Below are positions 653 through 44,400 of a stretch of DNA of 64,000 bases, one piece after another. Position 1 is the stretch's first letter, and every line of letters starts with the position of its first letter. The notes beneath the pieces are model-generated. The model searched no databases and had not been told where the DNA came from. It was given only the letters and a program-made list of their open reading frames with translations. The stretch is from an uncultured Actinomycetota bacterium (lineage in GTDB: Bacteria; Actinomycetota; Actinomycetes; JAHEKZ01): NCBI GenBank assembly GCA_963829525.1, contig CAWHIJ010000003.1:1568001-1632000 (forward strand), written 5' to 3'. The position numbers and the translations under genes are program-made.

Positions 653-1383
653 CACATCACCGGCAACGGAGCGCCGTCGATCGTGCCGTCGATGGCCAGA
701 ATGCTGAAGCGGGCGAAGAGCTCTTCGGCGAACCACCCGGTGTCGCGGGTGCGTGCAATTGCTTCTCGGTGGCCGGGGCTCTCGTAGGCGAACTGCCGGA
801 TCGCGTCGGCATCACGCCAGATGCTGAAGGTTCCCTGGAGCCCTATCGGAGCTTCGCCGATGCCCTTGGACCAGATCAGGCCGTTGGAGTGCGACACGGC
901 GGATGCGGCCTCTGGCACCGACCGCCAGAAGTCCCTCAGCTGTTGGGGTCGGATCCGAGCTCTGGTGATCGAGGCGACCGGTCCGTCGTTGGTCGGTGGT
1001 GCCGCAGGTGTCGAGCCGAACGGCTGCTGCTTCGACCAGCGACCCATGCTCGAGAGCGGTCTCATGGTGATGTGCAGGCGTTCGGTGGCCGCGGCGTCCC
1101 AGCGTCGGAGGACGCGGGAGCGCTCGAACGTGACGGCGGCGTGCGGGGTGTCCCAGCAGGTGAGGAGAGCCCAGTGGTGCGGGTCGGCGTCCTGAGGGGC
1201 GAAGGTCCTGCCACTCCCGGTGCCAAGGAGCTTGGCGAAGGTGAGCCCGGGATACCCACGCAGGCGGAACCGGTCGACGGCAAGCCGTCCTACGGCCGAG
1301 GCGATACCGGCCCTCGGCACGGTCCAAATGTGCAGGCCGACCACTGCGGGGGTTGGCTCAGCGGTGAGGCCGGATGTGGACAT
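652..1383 (-). CDS. Spheroidene monooxygenase (CrtA)-like protein
   Basis: FAKLLGTGSG, GIGEAPIGLQGTFSIW, H..AI..T...WFAEELFARF motifs; leaderless TAAGGT -10. Confidence 0.75.
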   Translation of the reverse strand: MSTSGLTAEPTPAVVGLHIWTVPRAGIASAVGRLAVDRFRLRGYPGLTFAKLLGTGSGRTFAPQDADPHHWALLTCWDTPHAAVTFERSRVLRRWDAAATERLHITMRPLSSMGRWSKQQPFGSTPAAPPTNDGPVASITRARIRPQQLRDFWRSVPEAASAVSHSNGLIWSKGIGEAPIGLQGTFSIWRDADAIRQFAYESPGHREAIARTRDTGWFAEELFARFSILAIDGTIDGAPLPVM

Positions 1384-1414
1384 GGGTCGACCTTAGGGCG
1401 CCGAATCGAGGGGG

Positions 1415-1443
1415 TTGACGTCGGACGTGGTGAGGGGTTTACT
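1415..1443 (+). promoter_or_regulatory. Putative sigmaA promoter of the SOS operon
   Basis: TTGACG (1415-1420), 17 bp, TTTACT (1438-1443); -10 is imperfect. Confidence 0.45.
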
Positions 1444-1452
1444 AGAGCTTAT

Positions 1453-1468
1453 TCGAACACATGTTCGA
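1453..1468. promoter_or_regulatory. LexA SOS box
   Basis: TCGAACACATGTTCGA matches the actinobacterial consensus TCGAAC-N4-GTTCGA, upstream of the dnaE2/dinB operon. Confidence 0.93.
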
Positions 1469-1472
1469 ACCT

Positions 1473-1526
1473 GAGCCGGTCGGGTGGGGTGCTGACCTCG
1501 ACCCTCACCGCCCGCCCGACCGGCTC
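1473..1526 (+). other. Strong 5' UTR hairpin
   Basis: GAGCCGGTCGGGTGGG pairs with CCCGCCCGACCGGCTC (16 bp, one G-U). Confidence 0.7.
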
Positions 1527-1587
1527 CCCGGCTTCCTGGTCCAACTGATGGACCAACTGATGGCTCGACCTGACAGGAGACAGCCCG

Positions 1588-1923
1588 ATGCGACGGATCG
1601 ACGAGTCGATTGAGTCGTTGACTCCCGTTGCTAGCGGTGAGACGGCGCCGCTGGCCTTCCGGTGGCGCGGCCGACGCTATGTCGTCGGAGCGGTATTGGC
1701 GCACTGGGTCGAGACGGGTGCGTGGTGGCGTCGGGTCGCATCGCGCCCCAGCTCCGGCTTCGATGAGCTGCCCGACCCCGAGCGGTGGCTCTGGCGGGTC
1801 GAGGCGTGCCGCGGGGCACAGACCGGAGTTTTCGACCTTTGCCTGGAAGTCGACAACCGTCCCGACGAGAGCTCCTGTGATCGCGGTCCAGCGCGCTGGT
1901 CCTTGTATGCGATCTACGACTGA
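1588..1923 (+). CDS. DUF6504 family protein (ImuB C-terminal-domain-like)
   Basis: AGGAG RBS; PLAFRWRGRRY.V..V...W.ETGAWW...WRVEA...GVFDL...W.LYAIYD. Confidence 0.8.
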   Translation: MRRIDESIESLTPVASGETAPLAFRWRGRRYVVGAVLAHWVETGAWWRRVASRPSSGFDELPDPERWLWRVEACRGAQTGVFDLCLEVDNRPDESSCDRGPARWSLYAIYD

Positions 1924-1977
1924 CCACCCGACTGACCACCCGACTGACCTACCGACTGACCTACCGACTGACCTACC
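1918..1977 (+). repeat. 12-bp tandem repeat x5
   Basis: GACTGACCACCC x2 then GACTGACCTACC x3, starting at the DUF6504 stop codon. Confidence 0.95.
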
Positions 1978-1993
1978 TGAAGGGATGGCCCCC

Positions 1994-2437
1994 ATGTCCA
2001 TCGACTTGTCCGTCGACCACGCCATCGCTCGACGAACCCCTCGGGGGTCGTCGGCTGGGGTCCTCGACCTGCTTGCTGCTGCGCACCGCGGCCTCACCGA
2101 GGCGGTGCTCGAGCCACGGGCCAGTCGCCGCTACGCCGTCGCCCACCTGGCGGCGCTCCGGGCGGCTGCCGCCGTGCTGGCCACCCGTGCTCGTCCGACC
2201 GGCCGCCGTGGCCCGCGCAGCGCCTGGGATCTTCTCGGCCAGGCTGCCCCCGAGCTTGCTGAGTGGGCGGCTTTCTTCGCCGCTGGCGCCGGCAAGCGGG
2301 CGGCGGCCGAGGCTGGCCTGGACGCGGTCACGCCCCGGGAGGCCGACGACCTGCTCCGGGACGTTGAAACCTTCCTAGCGCTGGCCGAGACCACCGTCGG
2401 TGTCCCACACCAGACCTCGCTGCCCCGTGTCAGCTGA
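1994..2437 (+). CDS. SAV_6107 family HEPN domain protein
   Basis: RYAVAHLAALRAAAAVLA...SAWDLL...APELAEWAAFFAAGAGKRAAAEAG...READDLLRD; start 1985 or 1994. Confidence 0.88.
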   Translation: MSIDLSVDHAIARRTPRGSSAGVLDLLAAAHRGLTEAVLEPRASRRYAVAHLAALRAAAAVLATRARPTGRRGPRSAWDLLGQAAPELAEWAAFFAAGAGKRAAAEAGLDAVTPREADDLLRDVETFLALAETTVGVPHQTSLPRVS

Positions 2438-2458
2438 CGAACCGGTGTCAGCTGACGA
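2427..2458. repeat. 14-bp direct repeat (18-bp period) across the HEPN gene stop
   Basis: GTGTCAGCTGACGA at 2427 and 2445, each containing the palindrome GTCAGCTGAC. Confidence 0.85.
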
Positions 2459-2485
2459 CCCGCGCCCTGTTCGGGTCTGCTCTCG

Positions 2486-5400
2486 GTGACCGGCTCTTCT
2501 TCTTTTCCACACCTGCATGTCGCCTCCGGCTGGTCGCTGCGTCACGGCGCATCCAGCCCAGAGGCGCTCGTCTCCGTCGCGGCTGACCGCGGCCTCGCCG
2601 TTCTCGGTCTGACCGACCGCGATGGTGTCCGTGGCGCTGTGCGTTTTGCCCGCGCCACCCTCGCCGCCGGGATCGCTCCGGTCTTCGGCGCCGACCTCGC
2701 CCTCGCGCCACCCCCGAACCCGGGACGTGCCCCCGAGCGAGCTCGTCGTACGCCGGTTCGAGGAGGCCGCACTCGTGACCTCCGACTGCCCAGGGTCACG
2801 GTGCTGGCGCGTGGCCCGCATGGCTGGGCGGCGCTCTGTCGCCTGGTCTCCGCTGCCCATGCCCAAGCCGAGGCAGCCGGACGTCGGGGGTACCCGACGG
2901 TCGACGCCGACCTGGTCGCTCACTACGCGGCCGAAGGTGCCTTGGTGGTGCTGCTCGGTCCCGACTCCGACGTCGGTCGGATGCTGGCAAGGCGTCGCCC
3001 CGACCTCGCGACGCTGGCGTGGCAGAGATGGCGAGACCGCATCCCTGCGCTGTGGTGCGAAGTGGTCAACCATCGTGGCGCTGACCCGGTTGGTCGGTCG
3101 GCGCCGTTCGCCGGTCGGATGCTCGGATGGGCGCACGAGCAGCAGGCAGACACCTTGCTGTCCAACGCGGTTCGCTACGCCCGTCGCGAGGACGCCCCGG
3201 TCGCCGACGTGCTCGACGCCGCACGTCAGCTGGTTCCGCTTGACCTGCGCCACATCGATCGTCGCACCGGCGAGGGCTACCTGAAGTCGTCATCACAGAT
3301 GGCCGAGATCGCCGCCGAGGTCGCTCGTCTGTCCGGCGTCGGCACCGAGCGCTCCACCAGCCGCGCGTTGCTCGCCGCCACTGAACGGCTCGCGCAGCAG
3401 TGTGTCCTGTCCCCAGTGGCCGACCTCGGTCTCGGCTCGGTGCACTTTCCCGAGCTCGAGGTGGTCGACCCGACCGCTGCCGTGGCCGGACGTGCGCCCG
3501 ATGCCGTGCTGCGTGAGCGGTGCGCAGCCCGTTGGTCGGCCCGCGAGCTGCCGACCGGCGGGCAGGCCGGACGCGAGGCGCGCGACCGTCTGGAGCACGA
3601 GCTCGGCATCATCGCCAGCCTTGGCTACGCCACCTACTTCCTCACCGTCGCCGACGTCGTCGACCTGATCCGCTCGATGCAGATTCGGGTTGCCGCACGT
3701 GGTTCGGGTGCTGGGTCACTGGTTACCTACCTACTCGGAATCTCAGGGGTCGATCCGGTTCGGCACGACCTTCTCTTCGAAAGGTTCCTCTCTCCGCTTC
3801 GCCAGGCGCTGCCCGACATCGACATCGACGTCGAGTCAGCGCGGCGCCTTGAGATCTACACTCAGATCTTCGAGCGCTTCGGCACTGCTCGCGTCGCTTG
3901 TGTCTCCATGGCCGATACCTACCGCGTCCGGCACGCGATTCGTGATGTCGGTGCGGCGCTTGGTCTGCCGCCCTCTGAGATCGACATGATCGCGAAGGCG
4001 TTCCCACACATTCGCGCCAAGGACGCGCAGAACGCTTTGCGTGAGCTGCCAGAGCTGCGGGCCAGCCGGATCGCCGACGACCCGCGGATGACGTTGCTCT
4101 TCTCGCTCGTCGAGCGTCTCGACGGTTTGCCGCGTCACCTCGCACTGCACCCGTGTGGCGTTCTGCTCTCCGACGCCACGCTGCTCGATCGCACACCGGT
4201 CGAGCAGAGCGCGATGGGTTTTGCCATGAGCCAGTTCGACAAGGACGACGTCGAGCACCTTGGCCTACTCAAGCTCGATGTCCTCGGCATCCGCATGCAG
4301 TCGGCGATGGCCTATGCCCTTGACGAGATCGAACGGGTCGACGGCCCGCAGCAGCGCCCTGACCTCGACAGCGTGCCGTTCGACGACCTGGCGACCTTCG
4401 ACCTCATCCGTTCCACGCACACCCTTGGGTGCTTTCAGATCGAGTCACCTGGTCAGCGTGAGCTGGTCGGCAAGTTCGCCCCCGAAACCTTCGACGATCT
4501 CATCATCGACATCTCGCTCTTCCGTCCCGGTCCGGTGAAGTCCGACATGGTCCGGCCCTTTCTCCATGCACGACATGGCTGGGCTGAGCCGCAGTACCTG
4601 CACCCCGACCTTGAGCCGGTACTGCGCTCCACCTACGGCGTTGTCGTCTTCCACGAGCAGGTGATCGACATGTTGCATGTCATCGCCGGGTGCTCCCGGG
4701 CCGAAGGTGACGAGAAGCGGAGGGCCCTCGGTGATCCCGATGGCCAGGCTGAGACGCGCGAGTGGTTCTATCGCTGTGCCCGAATGCGTGGGTACGACCT
4801 GCCGACAATCGAACGCATCTGGGATGTCCTGCGTGCGTTCGCCTCCTTCGGGTTCTGTAAGGCACACGCTGCAGCTTTTGCGCTGCCGACCTACCAGTCG
4901 GCGTGGCTCAAGACGCACCACACGGCTGGCTTCCTCGCTGGCGTCCTCACCCACGATCCCGGCATGTACCCGAAGCGGTTGATCCTCGACGACGCCCGAC
5001 AGTTCGGCGTCACCGTTTTGCCGCTCGACGTCAACGCATCCCGGACCGGCTATCGGGTCGAGCGGGTCGAGGTGGTCGACCCCGCTGACGCCCCTGCGCC
5101 GCCGCCCCGCACTCTCCCCGTCGCCGACTCCACGACCAGCCGGGCGCGCGGCGTCCTTGACCATCCGGCGCTTCCGGATGCCAGCGGTTACGGCATCCGC
5201 ATCGCGCTCGCCGAGGTCAAAGGAATCAGTGACGCCGAGGTCGAGCGGATCATTGCCGGGCAGCCTTTTCGTTCACTCACCGATTTCTGGCACCGCGCTG
5301 CCGTCTCGCGTCCGGTCGTCGAGCGGTTGGTGCTCGCCGGAGCCTTCGACAGGCTGCACGGCATCGACCTCACTCTTCCCGCTGCATCGGCGCGACGCCG

Positions 5401-6265
5401 GATCACCCGCCGAGACCTGCTGCTGGCAGTCGCTGAGCTCGACCGTTGGACCGCGATGCCCACGTTCCGTCGGGCCAAGTCTGGAGCTCGGCCTTCAGCA
5501 GTGGCCGGACCGGGCACCCAGCTCTCCTTCCCGCTCGGCCCCAGCGACGAGCAGGTGGCCCCCTCCGGTCTGCCGGAGATGACTGGCGCTGAGCAGGTCA
5601 GGGCAGAGCTCGACGTCCTCGGTCTGGACGCCAGCCGCCATGTCGTTGACTTCTACACCCCGTTGCTGCGTTCGCTCGACGTCGTGCGCTCCCGCGACCT
5701 GCTCACCTGTCGCTCGCGCAGCGAGATCTTGGTCGCGGGTGTGAAGGTGGCCACTCAGACACCGCCGATCCGTTCCGGCCGACGGGTCGTCTTCGTCACC
5801 CTCGACGACGCCACCGGCCCGGTCGATGCGACCTTCTTCGAAGATGCTCAAGGCCCCTATGCCGCGACGCTCTTCCACTCGTGGCTCCTGCTGATCCGGG
5901 GTGAGATACGCCGGACCGGTCCTCGGGGCGTCTCACTGCGTGCCACAGGGTGCTGGGAGCTTTCTGGTCTGTACGACCTGTGGCAGCGCAGTGGCACCGC
6001 CGCCATCCACGAGGTGCTCGACACGCCACCTCTGCTCAGCCCCTTGGGCACTAGCGCCGAGGAGGTGCAAGCTCCGGCTGGTCCGGCCCTGGTGGAGCCA
6101 GCCGGAATCACGGCTGGGGGAATGGGACGACGGCGTGTCCTGGTCCACCCCAGCGGCTTCCGCCAGTCGCCGTACGCAGACGTCCGCCCGGCAGGTGATG
6201 ACGTGAACCGCGGCACACCACCGCGCAAGCTCTGGCACTCCAGTCCAGGGAGCTCAGGTGGCTGA
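2486..6265 (+). CDS. dnaE2: Error-prone DNA polymerase III alpha (DnaE2 type)
   Basis: PHP domain, RGSGAGS, PDIDID, KLDVLG, FGFCKAHA, OB fold; degenerate PHP ligands; LexA box; second replicative dnaE in the window. Confidence 0.9.
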   Translation: MTGSSSFPHLHVASGWSLRHGASSPEALVSVAADRGLAVLGLTDRDGVRGAVRFARATLAAGIAPVFGADLALAPPPNPGRAPERARRTPVRGGRTRDLRLPRVTVLARGPHGWAALCRLVSAAHAQAEAAGRRGYPTVDADLVAHYAAEGALVVLLGPDSDVGRMLARRRPDLATLAWQRWRDRIPALWCEVVNHRGADPVGRSAPFAGRMLGWAHEQQADTLLSNAVRYARREDAPVADVLDAARQLVPLDLRHIDRRTGEGYLKSSSQMAEIAAEVARLSGVGTERSTSRALLAATERLAQQCVLSPVADLGLGSVHFPELEVVDPTAAVAGRAPDAVLRERCAARWSARELPTGGQAGREARDRLEHELGIIASLGYATYFLTVADVVDLIRSMQIRVAARGSGAGSLVTYLLGISGVDPVRHDLLFERFLSPLRQALPDIDIDVESARRLEIYTQIFERFGTARVACVSMADTYRVRHAIRDVGAALGLPPSEIDMIAKAFPHIRAKDAQNALRELPELRASRIADDPRMTLLFSLVERLDGLPRHLALHPCGVLLSDATLLDRTPVEQSAMGFAMSQFDKDDVEHLGLLKLDVLGIRMQSAMAYALDEIERVDGPQQRPDLDSVPFDDLATFDLIRSTHTLGCFQIESPGQRELVGKFAPETFDDLIIDISLFRPGPVKSDMVRPFLHARHGWAEPQYLHPDLEPVLRSTYGVVVFHEQVIDMLHVIAGCSRAEGDEKRRALGDPDGQAETREWFYRCARMRGYDLPTIERIWDVLRAFASFGFCKAHAAAFALPTYQSAWLKTHHTAGFLAGVLTHDPGMYPKRLILDDARQFGVTVLPLDVNASRTGYRVERVEVVDPADAPAPPPRTLPVADSTTSRARGVLDHPALPDASGYGIRIALAEVKGISDAEVERIIAGQPFRSLTDFWHRAAVSRPVVERLVLAGAFDRLHGIDLTLPAASARRRITRRDLLLAVAELDRWTAMPTFRRAKSGARPSAVAGPGTQLSFPLGPSDEQVAPSGLPEMTGAEQVRAELDVLGLDASRHVVDFYTPLLRSLDVVRSRDLLTCRSRSEILVAGVKVATQTPPIRSGRRVVFVTLDDATGPVDATFFEDAQGPYAATLFHSWLLLIRGEIRRTGPRGVSLRATGCWELSGLYDLWQRSGTAAIHEVLDTPPLLSPLGTSAEEVQAPAGPALVEPAGITAGGMGRRRVLVHPSGFRQSPYADVRPAGDDVNRGTPPRKLWHSSPGSSGG

Positions 6266-6277
6266 GAGGATGCCCTG

Positions 6278-7534
6278 GTGAGCAGGCAACAGCTCGGGCG
6301 TGGCATGGACGGCGGTGACCAGCCCGCCAGTGTCACCTCGCGCCGCGAGGTGGCCGATGACACCGGCTGCGACGTCCTGCATGTCGACATGGACGCGTTC
6401 TACGCATCGGTCGAACTGCTTCGCCACCCTGAGCTTGTCGGCACTCCCGTTGTCGTCGCAGGGGGAGGCACCCGCGGAGTCGTCCTGTCGGCCACATACG
6501 AGGCCCGTGCGCTCGGCGTCCACTCAGCGATGCCGACGTCACGTGCCCGCCGCCTGTGTCCCAACGCCACTTTCCTTGCGCCACACCATGAGGACTACGC
6601 GCGCATTTCATCGGGTGTCATGGCGATCTTCGGATCGGTCACTCCTGTCGTAGAGCCGCTCAGCCTCGATGAGGCCTTCCTCGACGTGCGTGGTGCGCAA
6701 CGAAGGCTCGGGTCACCGGCTGAGATCGGTGAGCTGATCCGTACCAAGGTCCAGGACGAACAGGGCATCACCTGTTCGGTCGGCGTCGCATCCACCAAGT
6801 TCGTCGCCAAGCTCGCCTCGGGGCGGTGCAAGCCCGATGGTCTGCTCGTCGTCCCAGCCGACAAGGTCATCGACTTCCTCCACCCACTCCAAATAGGCGC
6901 CCTGTGGGGAGTCGGTGACAAGACCGAAGAGGCATTGCACCGTCTTGGGCTGCGCACAGTCGCAGATCTGGCGAATACACCGATAGGAACGCTCGAACGC
7001 GCTATCGGCCCAGCTGCTGGACGGCACCTGTGGGAGCTGGCGTGGGGGCGCGATGAGCGCAGTGTCGTCGCCGATACCCAGGAGAAGAGCATCGGCAGGG
7101 ACCGTACCTTCGAGACCGACGTTGACGACGTCGAGGTGGTCTACCGCGAACTGCTGGCCCTCTCGCAGACGGTGGCGCGAGCACTCCGGGGCCGCGAGCT
7201 CGCCGGGAGGACGATCGCGATCCGGGTGCGGTTTGCCGACTTCACCACGATCACCCGCTCGCGCACCTTGGCGCATCCGACCGATGTCGCCCGTGACATC
7301 TACGCAACGGTTGTTGCCCTCTTCGACGCCCTCGGGCTTGATCGAGCTCGACTGCGCCTCGTGGGCGTTCGGGTGGAGGGCTTGGTCGACGGGTCGACCG
7401 TCGCCCACCAACTCACCTTCGACGAGCGCCCCGAAGCTTGGCGCGAAGCTGAGCGGGCCTCTGACCGGGCCGCCGACCGGTTCGGCCGAGGGGTGGTCCG
7501 CCCGGCAAGCCTGGTCGAGTCGCCCGACCCCTGA
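6278..7534 (+). CDS. dinB: DNA polymerase IV (Y family)
   Basis: HVDMDAFYAS, YEAR, SLDEAFLD, KPDG, RLVGVR, QLTF clamp motif; 12 nt after dnaE2. Confidence 0.95.
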   Translation: MSRQQLGRGMDGGDQPASVTSRREVADDTGCDVLHVDMDAFYASVELLRHPELVGTPVVVAGGGTRGVVLSATYEARALGVHSAMPTSRARRLCPNATFLAPHHEDYARISSGVMAIFGSVTPVVEPLSLDEAFLDVRGAQRRLGSPAEIGELIRTKVQDEQGITCSVGVASTKFVAKLASGRCKPDGLLVVPADKVIDFLHPLQIGALWGVGDKTEEALHRLGLRTVADLANTPIGTLERAIGPAAGRHLWELAWGRDERSVVADTQEKSIGRDRTFETDVDDVEVVYRELLALSQTVARALRGRELAGRTIAIRVRFADFTTITRSRTLAHPTDVARDIYATVVALFDALGLDRARLRLVGVRVEGLVDGSTVAHQLTFDERPEAWREAERASDRAADRFGRGVVRPASLVESPDP

Positions 7535-7725
7535 TGGAGCCAGCTGGGCTCCAGACGATCATGGGCTGTGCCGATGAACAAACGGTCACAGTCATTGCCG
7601 GTGATTTGCCGGTGGAGTTTCGCACTGGCGTCCGGGGACCTATCCTGGACGGGAGGGACGACCAGTTTCCCTCGTCCTCGGGTGAGCCCGGGGACGAACT
7701 GTGGTAGTCCAGCGAGGAGGAGGCC

Positions 7726-8104
7726 ATGCCGCTCTCTGAGCACGAGCAGCGCCTGCTCGAGCAGATGGAGCGTCAGCTCTACGCCGACGACCCCAAGTTG
7801 GCATCGACGCTTCGCGGAAGTGGTCGGTCGCTGCGTTCTCGACACCGGCTTGTCCTTGGTGCCCTGGGCGTAGTCCTTGGTCTGGCCGTGTTGGTTGCCG
7901 GAGTTGCGTCTCAGTTCTGGCCCGTCGGCGTGGCTGGCTTCCTCGTCATGCTGGGCGGCGGCTGGTGGGCGAGTACCGGTTGGCAAGGTGCGACGCGCAA
8001 CGCCTCTGCGGCGCCGCAGCAGTCACCAGAAGAGCTCACAACGCTCGGGATTCATGAACCGCATAGAAGAGCGCTGGGATCGCCGTCGCGACGGCGACCA
8101 GTAG
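7726..8104 (+). CDS. DUF3040 membrane protein (one apparent frameshift)
   Basis: MPLSEHEQRLLEQMERQLYADDPK N-terminus; FMNRIEERWDRRR C-terminus in another frame; GGAGG RBS. Confidence 0.85.
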
Positions 8105-8179
8105 CCGAGCTGCAGCACGCACCGCACGGCCTTCTGCTTGGCGGCCCCGTCCACTTGGTATGGCCTGGTCCACTTGGTC

Positions 8180-10617
8180 TTATCCGGTTGGCGCTTGCTG
8201 ACGTGACTTCGGCGTTCGCCAGTGCTGCCAGCGATCGGCCAGCCACTCGGCTGCGTGGTTCCGCCGTCGGCAAGGGCCAAGCGTCCAGAGGTGGGCCACC
8301 AGATGGCCCGACGTCGGTCGCGGGGGGAGATAGCCGCGTACAGGTCGCCACGGATGTCGCCGGCCAGCTGCTCTGATCTGTCCGGGACGGTCAGCGCGGT
8401 CGGCGGAACCGCGGTAGCGCAAGAACTCGACCCAGCGAGCCAACTGGCGCAGCTGTGCCGCTCGGGTGGGGCTGAGCCCACCTCGGGTCGGAATACGCTC
8501 GGCCAGATCGCGTGGCGTCTCGGTCGGCAGTGGACGCAGGTCGACATCGGTCGCCGCGTCGAGGACTTCCGCCCAGGCCGCGAGTATCGCGCTGTCGATT
8601 GACCCAGCATGGCGCCACCGTGACCGACGAACCATGACCGACGCCGCCTTGGGCGCGGCGATGGCGGCACCGCCCACCGCGATGACGAAGCAGCCACAGC
8701 AGGACCGTCGAGCCGTTGCCTTGCTCGGTGTCGGTGGCGGCCGAGCTCGACCCGATCGACTGGCCGCCTCGGTTGGCTCTGAGTCACCTCACGAGGTCGG
8801 GCGTCGTCCACCGCCGTTGCTGAGAGATCCGCCGCCGCGGCGGCAGAACCACACCACCGCCATCGTCGCGCCTCCACCCGGGTTGGCGGTGCTTGTCTTC
8901 TTGGGGTACGGGTGCCCAGCTCGGCGTAGCTCCACCATCGCCACCCCCTGGTGTGGGCTCGAAGCGGACCCAGCCCACGCCTTCGAACCACAGCTCGGGC
9001 CAGGCGTGCGCGTCGTGCGTCGTGACGACCCAGGTGCCGTCGTCGTCCTGTTCGCCGGGGGTGAATCCGACCTGCACCCGGGACGGGATGTCAAGGCTTC
9101 GGGCCATCAGCGCCATCGTCGCTGCGAACTGCTCGCAATATCCGCTGCGGTCTCGCAGGAAGTCTTCTAGTGCATCTGTGGCGTTTCCTTCCACCGTGTC
9201 GAGGCTGTAGGTGAAGTTGGTGCGGAACCAGTTCTGCAGCGCAAGCGCGCGGCCGTAGTCAGTCGTTGCGTCGGCGGTGACGTCCTCGGCCAGTGGAGTC
9301 AGTCGCTCCTCGATGCCGTCGGGGAGGTCGAGCCATTGGTAGAGGCGAGTTGTTGACCGATGGGTCCGCCGGGGGTGCTGCCTGCAACTGCTCGATGGTG
9401 GGCGTGATCTCCAGAGCGGTCGCGGTGTACTCCTGACCAAAAGCCGAGCCCTCCTCCTCGGCGCTGAAGACGTCGAAGGTCTGCTCGTCCCACCTCCAGT
9501 CGCCTGCGATATCGACCTTGGTGACCGGATAGGGGAGTGGCAGTCGGGGGGTGTCGAGAGCCCCGACGGTGATGTCGTAGCTCACCGGCGTCCGCGCGAT
9601 TGCGTCGGAGAGCCCAGGGGGGCTCGGTAGACCCGCCGGAGGCCTGTTGGTCGCTGCCCGCTGCCATTTCCTCGAGCGTCCAGGTCGTGCCATTGAACTT
9701 GTCGAGGGTGGCGATGCGCAGGTACTGAGGCGTCTGGGCCGCAGTTGTGTAGAAGAGGACCGCGCTGTCGTCCTGTTGAGTCAGATTGCGCTGCAGGTCG
9801 GTGATCGGGTTGATCGTGACGACGGTGCGGGCACTTGGTGACGACGCACCGCTGCCGTCACCCCCACTGCCGTCACCAGAGCCGCCACCGAACCTGCCGT
9901 CGCCGAGGCTGGGAAGAATCACCGGGACGATGACGGCAACGGTGAGCGCTGCGGCACCCAGCCTGCGGCCCGTGCCGCCCACGGAATGCACCTTCCCGTC
10001 GGCTCCGCCATCGATAGGCCGACCCCAGCGGGACAGTTCGACACGCCCGTCCTCAAGCAGGAGCAGCAACCAGCCAATGCCTGCCGCCAGGAACAACGGC
10101 CACGGGACGCCGTCAGGCAGCACCGTTGCCGGCACGAGGTAGAGCGTTAGCAGGGGGATGCCGGCGAGTGCCGCACGTCGACCACTGACCGCAATGGCAT
10201 CGACCGCCCAGGCGATGAGCGCCACGCCACTGACCACGAGGAACTGAATCCCTGCCGTGGCGGTCACCGGCGCGGTCTCCTGCGTGATCACGGTGTTTCC
10301 GTCACGTGCGAGATCGGCGAACACTCGCCAACGTCGCCATCTGGGAGGATCGCCGAACGCCGCGGTGTCTCTGGCGAAGAGCAGCGTCAGCAGCAGCAGC
10401 AGGCCACACGCCCTGCGCAGCCACGACCACCCATGTGGGGAGACCGAGGGCCCGGCCGGCAGCTCCGATCACCGCGACTGTTGCGATGGCGATCACCGAC
10501 ATGGCGAACCACGGACCGGTGAGCGTGGGGGAGAGCGCGAATGTCGTCAGCAGCGACGGCGACAGCGGCGGCCAGGGTGGGACGTAGCTGGTGCGACAAG
10601 TTTGCTCGCCTGCTCAT
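8180..10617 (-). CDS. Transglutaminase TgpA-like membrane protein (several frameshifts)
   Basis: GYCEQFA, HAWPE, FEPTP motifs; TM segments; ATGA overlap with DUF58. Confidence 0.82.
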
Positions 10618-41415: not shown

Positions 41416-44400
41416 ATGGCCGACTCGTTCGTGCACCTGCACGTGCACACCGAGTACTCCATGCTCGACGGTGCCGCCCGCGTCGGTGAGCTGCTCGACG
41501 CCGCAGTCGATCAGCAGATGCCCGCCATTGCGATCACCGATCACGGAAATCTCTTCGGCGCCCACGACTTCTACCGTCAGGCGCGCGACCGCGGAATCAG
41601 ACCGATCGTCGGGATCGAGGCCTACCTGACCCCTGGCACCGATCGCCGCGACCGCACCAGGGTCCGGTGGGGCGGCGGTGGCCAAGACGACGTCTCCGGC
41701 GCCGGTGCCTACACGCACATGACCATGCTGGCCCAATCGACAGCCGGTATGCACAACCTGTTCCGACTCTCCAGTCTGGCGAGCATCGAGGGCTTCTACT
41801 TCAAGCCGCGGATGGACCGAGAGCTGCTACAGACCTACTCCGACGGCATCATTGCCACGACCGGATGTCCATCCGGTGAGGTGCAGACGTTGCTTCGTCT
41901 CGGCAAGTACGACGCCGCAGTCCAGGCCGCGTCGGACTACCGGGACATCTTCGGGGCGGACAACTACTTCTGCGAGCTGATGGACCACGGCCTCGACATC
42001 GAACGGCGTCCACGGGACGACTTGCTTCGCCTGGCCAAGCAGCTGAACCTGCCGCTCGTCGCCACCAACGACCTGCACTACACCCATGCTGCTGACGCAG
42101 AGTCGCACGCGGCGTTGCTGTGCGTGCAGTCCGGCTCGACCCTGGCCGACCCCACCCGCTTCAAGTTCGACGCCGACGAGTTCTACCTCAAGACGGCAGA
42201 GGAGATGCGCGAGGTCTGGCGTGACTATCCCGAGGCATGTGACAACACCTTGCTCATCGCCGAGCGCTGCCAGGTTGCCTTCAACGAGGACGCCAACCTC
42301 ATGCCGCGCTACGACGTCCCCGACGGCGAGACTGAGGCGTCCTGGTTCGTCAAAGAGGTAGAGCGCGGTCTGCATCTTCGCTACCCGACGGGGATCTCCG
42401 ACGAGGTGCGCAAGCAGGCCGAGTACGAGGTCGGCGTCATCTGCCAGATGGGCTTTCCCGGCTACTTCCTGGTCGTCGCCGACTTCATCGGATGGGCCAA
42501 GCGACAAGGCATCCGGGTCGGCCCCGGCCGCGGGTCGGCTGCTGGCGCGATCGTGGCCTACGCGCTGGGGATCACCGACCTCGATCCTCTGCAGCATGGA
42601 CTGCTGTTCGAGCGCTTCCTCAACCCCGAACGGGTCTCGATGCCCGACATCGACATCGACTTCGACGAGCGCCGTCGCGGTGACGTCATTCGCTACGTCA
42701 CCGAACGGTACGGCGACGACCGCGTCGCGCAGATCGTGACCTACGGCACCATCAAGGCCAAACAAGCGATCAAGGACTCCTCGCGAGTTCTTGGCTATCC
42801 CTATGCACTGGGGGACCGCATCACCAAGGTGTTACCGCCATCGGTTATGGGGAAGGACATCTCCCTCAAGGGAGTCTTCGACGCGAAGGACAAGCGTTAC
42901 AACGAAGCCGGCGAGTTCCGCTCCCTCTACGAGTCCGACGCTGACGTCAAGCGGGTGGTCGACACCGCTCGTGGCCTCGAGAACCTCAAGCGTCAGTGGG
43001 GCGTGCACGCCGCCGGTGTGATCATGTCCAGCGAGCGGCTGATCGACCACATTCCCATCATGAAGCGCGAGCAGGACGGCGCGATCATCACGCAGTTCGA
43101 CTACCCGACCTGCGAACGGCTCGGGCTGCTGAAGATGGACTTCCTGGGTCTTCGCAACCTCACGGTTCTGGAGGACGCGCTCGCCAACATCGAGGCGAAC
43201 CGAGGCGAGACCGTGGTACTCGAGACGCTCACCCTGGACGACAAGCCCACCTATGAGCTCTTGGCCACCGGTGACACGCTGGGTGTCTTCCAGCTCGACG
43301 GCGGGCCGATGCGGGCACTCCTGCGCTCAATGGTGCCGGACAGCTTCGAGGACATCTCGGCAGTCCTGGCGCTCTACCGCCCGGGGCCGATGGGGGCCAA
43401 CGCGCACAACGACTACGCCGACCGCAAGAACGACCGCAAGCCGGTGACGCCGATCCATCCAGAGCTTGAAGAGCCACTCGCCGATATCTTGGGTGACACC
43501 TACGGTGTCATCGTCTACCAGGAACAGGTCATGGCGATCGCTCAGCAGCTCGCTGGTTACACCCTGGGCCAGGCAGACCTGCTGCGACGGGCAATGGGCA
43601 AGAAGAAGAAGGAAGTTCTCGACAAGGAGTTTGTGCCGTTCTCTGACGGCATGCGCGCACGCGGGTATTCCGACAAGGCGATCTCCACGCTGTGGGAGAT
43701 CCTCGTTCCTTTCGCCGACTACGCCTTCAACAAGGCGCACACCGCCGGGTACGGGCTCGTCTCCTACTGGACGGCCTATCTCAAGGCGAACTTCCCAGCC
43801 GAGTACATGGCCGCGCTGCTCACGTCGGTCCGCGACGACAAGGACAAGTCAGCCCTCTACCTGCACGAGTGCAGGCGCATGGGCATCAAGGTGCTTCCCC
43901 CAGATGTCAATGACTCGGATGCGAACTACACCCCCCGTGGAACCGATATCCGCTTCGGACTCGCTGCGATTCGCAATGTCGGGCTCAACGTCGTTGGCTC
44001 AATCGTCGAAGCCCGACGCGCCAAGGGCAGGTTCGCCGACTTCGCTGACTTCCTCGCCAAGGTCGACCAGGTGGTCTGCAATAAACGGGTTATCGAGTCA
44101 CTGGTCAAGGCTGGCGCCTTCGACTCACTTGGGCACACCAGACGTGGGCTCATCGCGGTACATGTCGAAGCAGTCGACATGGTGCTGGAGACCAAGCGTG
44201 CCGAGGCGATCGGCCAGTTCGACCTTTTCGGGTCGTCCGAGGACAGCGACACAGCTGGCTTCACCTCCGAGCTGACGATTCCGGTCGGTGAGTGGGAGAA
44301 GTCAACGTTGCTGACGCACGAGCGCGACATGCTGGGCCTGTATGTGTCAGACCATCCGCTCTTCGGAGTCGAGCACGTGCTGGCAGCCAACTCCGACTGC

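Follow-up and report, generated by a model that had tools for sequence, protein, structure and literature searches.

Stand-alone ImuB-C systems and the operon in the window

A stand-alone form of the ImuB C-terminal domain (ImuB-C) was defined in 2013, and the domain was described as about 80–100 residues long, formed mainly of β-strands, and bearing a conserved C-terminal tryptophan and conserved basic residues (PMC3765255). Operons that lack ImuA and combine stand-alone ImuB-C with Y-family polymerases, whether active or inactive, and/or with DnaE2 were described in 2019 (PMC6511836). More recently, a DnaE2B group with an active PolY, a stand-alone ImuB-C, and RecA was reported in Actinobacteria only (NAR 2026, PMC12926913); it is the fourth DnaE2B group of that paper, with Tessaracoccus lapidicaptus as an example. 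The free-standing domain, for which the preliminary description of the present locus had proposed a literature check, thus proved to be already published (PMC3765255, PMC6511836, PMC12926913, in the portions drawn on).

The window, i.e., the whole stretch of 64,000 nucleotides analysed here, derives from an uncultured Actinomycetota bacterium. Four of its genes lie in order on one strand, namely, imuB-C (1588..1923), a HEPN_SAV_6107 family gene (1985..2437), dnaE2 (2486..6265), and dinB (6278..7534), with gaps of only 61, 48, and 12 nt, respectively. A LexA-type SOS box, TCGAACACATGTTCGA (1453..1468), which is perfectly palindromic and fits the consensus without mismatch, lies 120 nt upstream of the start of imuB-C. 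We take TCGAAC-N4-GTTCGA to be the actinobacterial LexA box consensus; perfect sites of this form occur seven times in the 2.96-Mb genome, including the imuB-C box and one upstream of lexA (C3:2129863), and a site with one mismatch precedes recA (C3:2154923). An SOS box was also found 5′ of stand-alone imuB-C in all 13 other loci, with nine perfect, three one-mismatch, and one two-mismatch sites. The sole terminator-like hairpin found in the operon sits inside the HEPN gene, and a scan for sigma-70-like promoters over positions 1300–8000, which is uninformative for a GC-rich actinobacterium, returned no site. We refer to imuB-C as the first gene of a predicted LexA-repressed four-gene operon.

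The arrangement recurs in related loci. Twenty regions were fetched, and 15 centred on DUF6504 could be scored (L082–L085 and L089–L099); those left out were L100, which showed imuB-C alone, L101, in which imuB-C escaped a tblastn search with the window protein, and three Streptomyces-like HEPN loci. Twelve of the 15 scored loci have imuB-C, dnaE2, and dinB following each other in this order on the same strand, with dnaE2 adjoining dinB, and the other three (L090, L093, and L098) contained dnaE2 with no dinB reached in the fetched region.

We consider it about 70% probable that the window carries a stand-alone ImuB-C in a LexA-repressed operon that represents the published actinobacterial DnaE2B-[ImuB-C]-PolY-RecA module, with the domain coupled to DnaE2. 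The predicted gene content fits this module, where DnaE2 was judged by percent identity rather than by a tree. In both cases, an apparently active Y-family partner is present and neither ImuA nor fused ImuB was found, whereas a HEPN_SAV_6107 gene between imuB-C and dnaE2 was seen on the window side only and goes without mention in the main text of the published account. Because the operon fits the group published in NAR 2026 (PMC12926913, as far as the consulted parts extend), the identification of a stand-alone ImuB-C module in the window is correct but already known and ordinary. It confirms the published picture of modular mutasomes, in which ImuB can occur split into separate parts.

Other known systems share parts of this layout. 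The imuY-dnaE2 system likewise lacks ImuA and encodes a small separate ImuB-C, a Y-family protein, and DnaE2 in one operon under SOS control, and both imuY and dnaE2 are needed there for UV mutagenesis; however, ImuY is predicted to be inactive while the DinB of the window retains its catalytic motifs, lexA lies inside that operon but elsewhere in the window's genome, the gene order is different, and there is no HEPN gene. The mycobacterial ImuA′-ImuB-DnaE2 mutasome has the same module order of Y-family body, clamp motif, RecA-NT, and ImuB-C, the second and third of which are candidate motifs in the window, and likewise involves DnaE2 as a partner and control by LexA. In mycobacteria, the Y-family protein to which ImuB-C is fused is catalytically dead and ImuA′, a RecA paralogue, is present, whereas in the window the domain is free and the polymerase intact, and in its genome only RecA itself was found. 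The operon lexA-imuB-C-polY of Geobacter sulfurreducens (GSU0042 type) resembles the window in placing both a stand-alone ImuB-C and an active Y-family polymerase under SOS control, but lacks DnaE2 according to the sections of the two sources considered (PMC3765255, PMC6511836). Escherichia coli Pol V (UmuD′2C-RecA) also combines a Y-family polymerase carrying a RecA-contacting C-terminal motif, for which the window has a candidate, with a small β-rich subunit and LexA control, although UmuD′ is SH3-like, self-cleaving, and unrelated to ImuB-C, and no C-family polymerase is a partner.

The genome (2.96 Mb in three contigs, 97% complete) contained one RecA and one LexA with the queries used, and its IMS-family genes were two only, both DinB-like. 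An ImuB2-C query detected no fused ImuB2-type C-terminus in this genome or in any of the five genomes of its family. A search of the 97% complete genome with an actinobacterial ImuA′ found nothing at E 1, and the ImuA model matched recA only, no ImuA being found. The locus thus departs from the canonical ImuA-ImuB-DnaE2 cassette, the ORF being free-standing with 111 aa and no ImuA being found with the queries used.

PF20114 (DUF6504) matched 116 of 301 genomes in the phylum sample and 90 of 151 in the class Actinomycetes; the phylum tallies for this profile and for PF18726 include nine genomes marked unpublished, and the class tallies, including the cross-tabulation, include seven. The ImuB2-C query matched 44 of the 151 class genomes, two of which were dropped as spurious (a 6271-aa frame with E 3.4e-4 and a stop-containing match with E 8.2e-4). 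Cross-tabulation gave 90 genomes with stand-alone ImuB-C, 42 with fused ImuB2-C, and only four with both, statistics that are inflated by kinship among the genomes. Since 90 of the 151 sampled Actinomycetes carry stand-alone imuB-C, the RecA-dependent variant is probably widespread, and a large share of environmental actinobacteria probably use it, rather than mycobacterial ImuA′B, for damage-induced mutagenesis. The closest relatives of the window protein (86% identity) were encoded in metagenome-assembled genomes labelled Actinomycetes or Candidatus Nanopelagicales, and more distant ones in Nocardioidaceae, Propionibacteriales, and Jiangellales, with Nocardioides species among those that are named; 208 stretches encoded relatives in all.

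DUF6504 and ImuB's C-terminal domain

The imuB-C ORF (1588..1923 on the forward strand, including the stop codon) starts with ATG, encodes 111 aa, and is preceded by a Shine-Dalgarno-like AGGAG read from the sequence 8 nt 5′ of the start codon (1575..1579, forward strand). PF20114 matched the protein with E 1.3e-17 and 64.4 bits (cut-off 24.2), covering residues 2–110 of 111 and profile positions 4–102 of 103, and the label DUF6504 given to this ORF in the preliminary description is therefore correct over nearly its full length. None of the NCBIfam models matched the 111-aa protein. The residue pattern quoted earlier is present in the translation, but its spacing was one residue off (W-x-E-xxx-WW, not W.E..WW).

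In an alignment of 27 stand-alone proteins (A1), P21, F24, W26, R27, W40, R70, W104, and D111 were invariant and R3 was nearly so. The AF2 model built from this alignment (pLDDT 82, pTM 0.73) was mostly β, with six strands and one short helix. Two of the 27 rows (L008 and L014) come from genomes marked unpublished, and the AF2 model and the profile-profile comparison below rest in small part on them. In size, mainly β content, C-terminal tryptophan, and conserved basic residues, the family matches the published description of ImuB-C.

Many overlapping open frames occur on both strands of this region, as would be expected if the ORF were no gene and had stayed open by chance in GC-rich DNA, yet the strong family match, the ribosome-binding site, the residues invariant in 27 homologues, the conserved gene position, and the confident fold prediction oppose this explanation, whose probability we regard as negligible. 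A chance ORF is ruled out by conservation, because the family occurs in 116 of 301 phylum and 90 of 151 class genomes with invariant residues.

The proposal that DUF6504 is a free-standing ImuB C-terminal domain was borne out by a profile match above the cut-off to the C-terminus of a Sinorhizobium ImuB and by AF2 models that share their strand order. Four annotated imuA-imuB-dnaE2 cassettes on proteobacterial plasmids were picked by tblastn with the window DnaE2. The Sinorhizobium plasmid ImuB (507 aa), an annotated Y-family protein whose gene is flanked by genes for ImuA and for an error-prone polymerase, matched PF20114 at residues 429–504 with 26.9 bits, above the cut-off of 24.2. The Agrobacterium (503 aa) and Cereibacter (485 aa) proteins matched at residues 428–498 and 406–471 with 18.0 and 18.5 bits, respectively, below the cut-off, and the Burkholderia ImuB gave no match. 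Hence, one of the four proteobacterial ImuB proteins scored above and two below the cut-off (E 0.002–0.004), always at the extreme C-terminus. Among 14 control genomes, PF20114 matched only Caulobacter vibrioides, as a genome-level match, and Caulobacter carries imuAB-dnaE2 (PMC6511836, in the part considered).

None of three mycobacterial-type ImuB proteins matched PF20114, even at E 10, and the profiles were therefore compared directly, using an alignment of 29 mycobacterial-type ImuB (ImuB2) C-termini (A3). With hhalign, A1 and A3 aligned end to end over 74 columns with P 9.6e-4 at a probability of only 22%, and a local run was similar; both families end at the stop codon in W-x-[LV]-x3-[YW]-[DE]. 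When an ImuB2-C HMM was searched against 1176 frames of DUF6504 loci, 20 of the top 21 were DUF6504 frames, and at full sensitivity the top-ranked DUF6504 frames had E values of 2.5e-5 to 0.06. In the reverse HMM search, ImuB C-termini ranked first, with a best E of 0.005. The window protein was absent from the ImuB2-C HMM matches among the 1176 frames, and the link to ImuB2 therefore holds at the family level only. The AF2 model of imuB-C has strands at residues 2–7, 23–26, 29–43, 65–75, 78–87, and 103–110, and that of ImuB2-C from A3 (pLDDT 89, pTM 0.80) has strands at residues 5–10, 31–34, 37–50, 66–73, 78–84, and 87–94, each with a short helix following the third strand. In both models, two short strands precede a long one, a short helix follows at the WW motif, and three further strands complete the order. 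Judged from these profile matches and predicted folds, DUF6504 is, at the family level, the ImuB-C domain.

Neither model had a convincing relative among solved structures. When the PDB was searched by sequence with ImuB-C, matches were at chance level only (best, a thiol transferase with E 0.003), and an ImuB query returned DinB structures only. Foldseek found no match in the PDB at E ≤ 0.001, and in the wide VIA-align search the best match, to cystatins, had a Z of 6.3, within the stated noise range of the tool. This outcome agrees with the published comment that close structural relatives of ImuB-C are lacking and does not by itself prove a new fold. A word-indexed search with A1 for longer proteins, which is weak evidence by the tool's own rating, retrieved eight proteins of 220–765 aa, seven of them with PF20114; none of the eight had an IMS domain, and a single-protein query gave no longer protein.

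No papers using the names DUF6504, PF20114, or IPR045443 were found in the literature searched, and the proposed equation of DUF6504 with ImuB-C appears to be unpublished to that extent. As the Pfam names are absent from that literature, genome annotations still read ‘domain of unknown function’; the practical value of the result thus lies in annotation, namely, that Pfam DUF6504 would be recorded as the ImuB-C domain.

Polymerase partners and proposed coupling to DnaE2

The dnaE2 gene (2486..6265, forward strand) encodes a C-family polymerase of 1259 aa with Pfam PHP, DNA_pol3_alpha, finger, HHH_6, and OB domains, and contains the motifs PDIDID (aa 443–448) and LKLDVLG (aa 595–601). Its best NCBIfam match was ‘error-prone DNA polymerase’, below the model cut-off. 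The genome has one DnaE-type gene besides dnaE2, which counts as the second of the two, and the other, located elsewhere in the same window, is presumably the replicative one. The window DnaE2 showed 54–61% identity to DnaE2 proteins encoded beside stand-alone imuB-C in the same class, 30–37% to those beside fused ImuB, and 45% to a DnaE2 that is encoded on a Streptomyces plasmid next to a Y-family-like gene.

The dinB gene (6278..7534, forward strand; the true start may be at 6305 or 6350) carries Pfam IMS, IMS_HHH, and IMS_C domains and matched NF003015, DNA polymerase IV, with 380 bits against a cut-off of 367. The catalytic motifs DMDAFY (aa 37–42) and SLDEA (aa 129–133) are kept, and this Y-family partner is apparently active; since these motifs are intact, unlike in ImuB, as are those of DnaE2, the system seems to comprise two active polymerases. 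In the tail of DinB, QLTF (aa 378–381; 7409..7420, forward strand) was recognised by inspection as a candidate β-clamp-binding motif, by analogy with QLPLW of M. smegmatis ImuB. Ten of 12 full-length aligned orthologues of DnaE2-linked DinB have QLTL, QLALL, or QATL at this position, where L084 differs and L096 is cut by a contig end. Further along (aa 388–412; 7439..7513, forward strand), a motif resembling the RecA N-terminus, with the core RFGRGVV, was found by eye. The N-terminus of the genome's own RecA has QFGKGSV in a matching setting, a likeness likewise seen by eye without a statistic, and RFG-x-G is kept in all 12 full-length orthologue tails aligned. The product of the genome's second DinB-like gene ends right after the little-finger domain and has no such tail.

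In M. smegmatis ImuB, the clamp motif QLPLW is followed by RecA-NT and then ImuB-C (PMC11791113, in the part considered). As the candidate motifs of the DinB tail stand in the same order, the window DinB looks like an ImuB that stops ahead of ImuB-C, yet is apparently still an active enzyme. In the preliminary description, ImuB function was taken to be divided between DinB, with its polymerase core and clamp motif, and a small DnaE2 adaptor. A DinB core with a clamp-like motif and a separately encoded ImuB-C were indeed found; the analogy falls short in that DinB, unlike ImuB, keeps its catalytic motifs, and the picture was incomplete, having missed the RecA-NT-like tail of DinB and the HEPN gene in the operon.

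Under the preferred reading as an actinobacterial DnaE2B module, DNA damage would lead to RecA-stimulated cleavage of LexA and derepression of the operon. DinB would provide the body of the Y-family type, the contact to the clamp, and the RecA-NT motif, through which RecA itself would be recruited in place of ImuA. The free ImuB-C β-domain would dock on the PHP domain of DnaE2, as in the AlphaFold models published for ImuB-DnaE2, and this docking would couple DnaE2 to the clamp-bound complex, allowing error-prone lesion bypass. The C-terminal part of ImuB binds DnaE2 and ImuA′ (PMC6511836), and AlphaFold models place ImuB-C, a β-barrel, on the DnaE2 PHP domain (PMC12926913), as far as the consulted parts of these papers go. 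We infer binding of the window ImuB-C to DnaE2 from this analogy. A complex prediction with DnaE2 residues 1–340 (A2) and ImuB-C (A1) scored 0.00 in two runs without controls and carries no weight either way.

A different function was proposed for ImuB-C by Aravind and colleagues in 2013 (PMC3765255), in which the domain marks damage. On this view, which we regard as unlikely, ImuB-C would be no polymerase adaptor; as a small module binding DNA or lesions, it would recruit an adjacently encoded repair enzyme. It draws on the occurrence of stand-alone ImuB-C beside DinB alone, Ku and ligase, SplB photolyase, and SRAP, and on the conserved basic residues noted in the same work (PMC3765255); in the present alignment, R27 and R70 are invariant and R3 nearly so. 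However, imuB-C was tied to dnaE2 in nearly all of the phylum loci examined, its stand-alone form was nearly exclusive with fused ImuB, and published models seat ImuB-C on both the DnaE2 PHP domain and ImuA (PMC12926913, PMC11791113, as far as considered). Because stand-alone ImuB-C has been described beside genes other than dnaE2 (PMC3765255), a general role in DNA or damage recognition retains a small share of the probability.

The HEPN_SAV_6107 neighbour

The gene between imuB-C and dnaE2 (1985..2437, forward strand; 150 aa) belongs to the HEPN_SAV_6107 family (PF18726, E 3.3e-33). PF18726 matched 119 of the 151 class genomes versus only 21 of the 301 sampled from the phylum. Of the 90 class genomes with imuB-C, 72 had the HEPN gene directly downstream on the same strand, with domain gaps of 68–509 nt, raw counts that are inflated by kinship. 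This adjacency, together with the SOS box that precedes HEPN itself, would suit a two-protein unit of ImuB-C and HEPN_SAV_6107, e.g., a regulator or checkpoint of translesion synthesis, in which HEPN and not DnaE2 is the primary partner of ImuB-C. Against such a unit, 41 of the 119 HEPN-bearing class genomes had no PF20114 match, and 12 loci outside Actinomycetes (L089–L100) had imuB-C with no HEPN match and variable genes in the gap. Given these HEPN-only and imuB-C-only cases, neither protein requires the other, and we consider the two-protein unit improbable compared with the DnaE2-coupled module.

All 41 loci with HEPN but no PF20114 match were fetched. An SOS box with at most one mismatch was found near HEPN, at positions between about 70 nt into the gene and 500 nt upstream of its estimated start, in 33 of the 41; the eight exceptions were five Streptomyces-like loci, one cut by a contig end, G083, and one in which tblastn found no HEPN. 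Several gene orders were observed. In 13 loci, the box was followed by HEPN and dinB, mostly then by DUF3040, whereas the order imuB2-dnaE2-box-HEPN-DUF3040 occurred in three loci, with two more in which only dnaE2 was in view. One locus had the box and HEPN, a gap of about 0.8 kb, and then imuB2-dnaE2-dinB-DUF3040. HEPN-dnaE2 occurred in three loci, two of them with the box and the third cut by a contig end, and in the remaining loci HEPN stood with DUF3040 or alone in the fetched stretch. Across Actinomycetes, at least five gene orders thus keep HEPN next to dinB, dnaE2, or imuB genes, and it retains its own SOS box even when downstream of dnaE2.

In Streptomyces-like genomes, HEPN, methyltransferase, DUF3040, and transglutaminase genes follow in that order, and neither HMM detected a divergent imuB-C beside HEPN there. 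The window also contains a DUF3040 gene (7726–8376), assigned by eye and by tblastn matches to a Pfam-labelled orthologue, and a transglutaminase-like ORF on the reverse strand (8784–9440), labelled by eye from its translation. As these two genes are common to the window and the Streptomyces-like loci, the adjacency is partly conserved synteny.

An alignment of 46 HEPN sequences shared R49-x4-H54, W81, W94, R105, R118, D121, R125, and F130 (window numbering). In a 2013 survey of HEPN domains, the row for the SAV_6107 family reads ‘No’ in the column that follows its name (PMC3710099, in the part considered). This entry presumably refers to Rx4-6H, the catalytic motif of active HEPN RNases. R49 and H54 were conserved in 45 and 43 of the 46 sequences, respectively. 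In the literature searched, no papers on HEPN_SAV_6107 were found beyond that table row, and the word ‘HEPN’ occurs nowhere in the main text and the part of the supplement of PMC12926913 that was covered, where supplementary figures may bear on it. The link of HEPN_SAV_6107 with imuB-C and SOS boxes appears to be unreported.

Tentatively, HEPN_SAV_6107 may be a LexA-controlled accessory factor, as a subunit or gatekeeper, of actinobacterial DnaE2/DinB mutasomes that has been left out of the published models. If the observation holds, the family is a testable candidate component of the mutasome machinery. In the window, a 12-bp tandem repeat of 5.1 copies (1917..1977; TRF score 87, 95% matches) spans the stop codon of imuB-C and the spacer that separates it from the HEPN gene.

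The HEPN_SAV_6107 gene and its association with translesion polymerases

The gene immediately following the stand-alone imuB-C gene encodes a HEPN_SAV_6107 protein (window 1985–2437), which we compared with its counterparts at the fetched loci L082–L088 and L110–L148. A HEPN_SAV_6107 gene was located directly 3′ of imuB-C in 72 of the 90 imuB-C-bearing genomes of the class sample, and among the 41 genomes in which imuB-C was not found, 33 carried a separate TCGAAC-N4-GTTCGA box at HEPN_SAV_6107 itself. Its neighbours were dinB, dnaE2 or imuB, in a variable gene order that comprised several arrangements. The R-x4-H pair was largely retained in the compared sequences (R in 45 and H in 43 of 46). 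Judged from these sequence comparisons, HEPN_SAV_6107 resembles a member of the SOS regulon with ties to translesion polymerases.

Variant arrangements and the chromosomal site

Fused ImuB2 and stand-alone imuB-C, the latter followed by the HEPN gene, occurred together in four genomes of a single family (G341, G368, G389, and G427; family f109), the only ones among the 151 class genomes to contain both ImuB forms. In Nonomuraea gerenzanensis (NZ_LT559118.1, locus L080), imuB-C lay immediately 5′ of dnaE2; HEPN was not matched at this locus, and dinB was not found within 4 kb. At another locus (L092), imuB-C and dnaE2 were separated by a two-ORF insert, which looks like a toxin-antitoxin pair when the translations are inspected by eye.

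The operon is followed by a DUF3040-like gene (window 7726–8376, forward strand) and a transglutaminase-like ORF (8784–9440, reverse strand). In Streptomyces-like genomes, the HEPN gene is flanked by matching neighbours, in the arrangement HEPN, methyltransferase, DUF3040, and TgpA, and this site is devoid of polymerase genes. The operon appears to occupy a conserved chromosomal position at which mutasome genes are gained and lost. Upstream, two genes are encoded on the opposite strand, namely a DUF4126 membrane protein (65–736) and a spheroidene-monooxygenase-like gene (652–1383; NF045923, E-value 1e-52, below the cut-off).

Other polymerases, repeats and SOS-box-like sites

A second DnaE-type polymerase gene, presumably that of the replicative DnaE1, was located at approximately 42343–43149 of the window (G000:C3:1610343–1611149), about 40 kb from dnaE2, so that both genes fall within the 64-kb window. 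The second DinB-like polymerase of the genome (locus L003, G000:C3:2828658–2832092) ends directly after the little-finger domain; the clamp-like and RecA-NT-like tail is present on the operon DinB and absent from this protein.

Two 12-bp tandem repeats were observed around imuB-C, one (5.1 copies, 1917–1977) extending over its stop codon and the intergenic gap that precedes the HEPN gene, and the other (2.2 copies, 1537–1563) lying between the SOS box and its start. An SOS-box-like site with one mismatch was present within the start of dnaE2 (2746–2761), and a further perfect SOS box was found approximately 1.5 kb beyond the window end (G000:C3:1633505–1633520).
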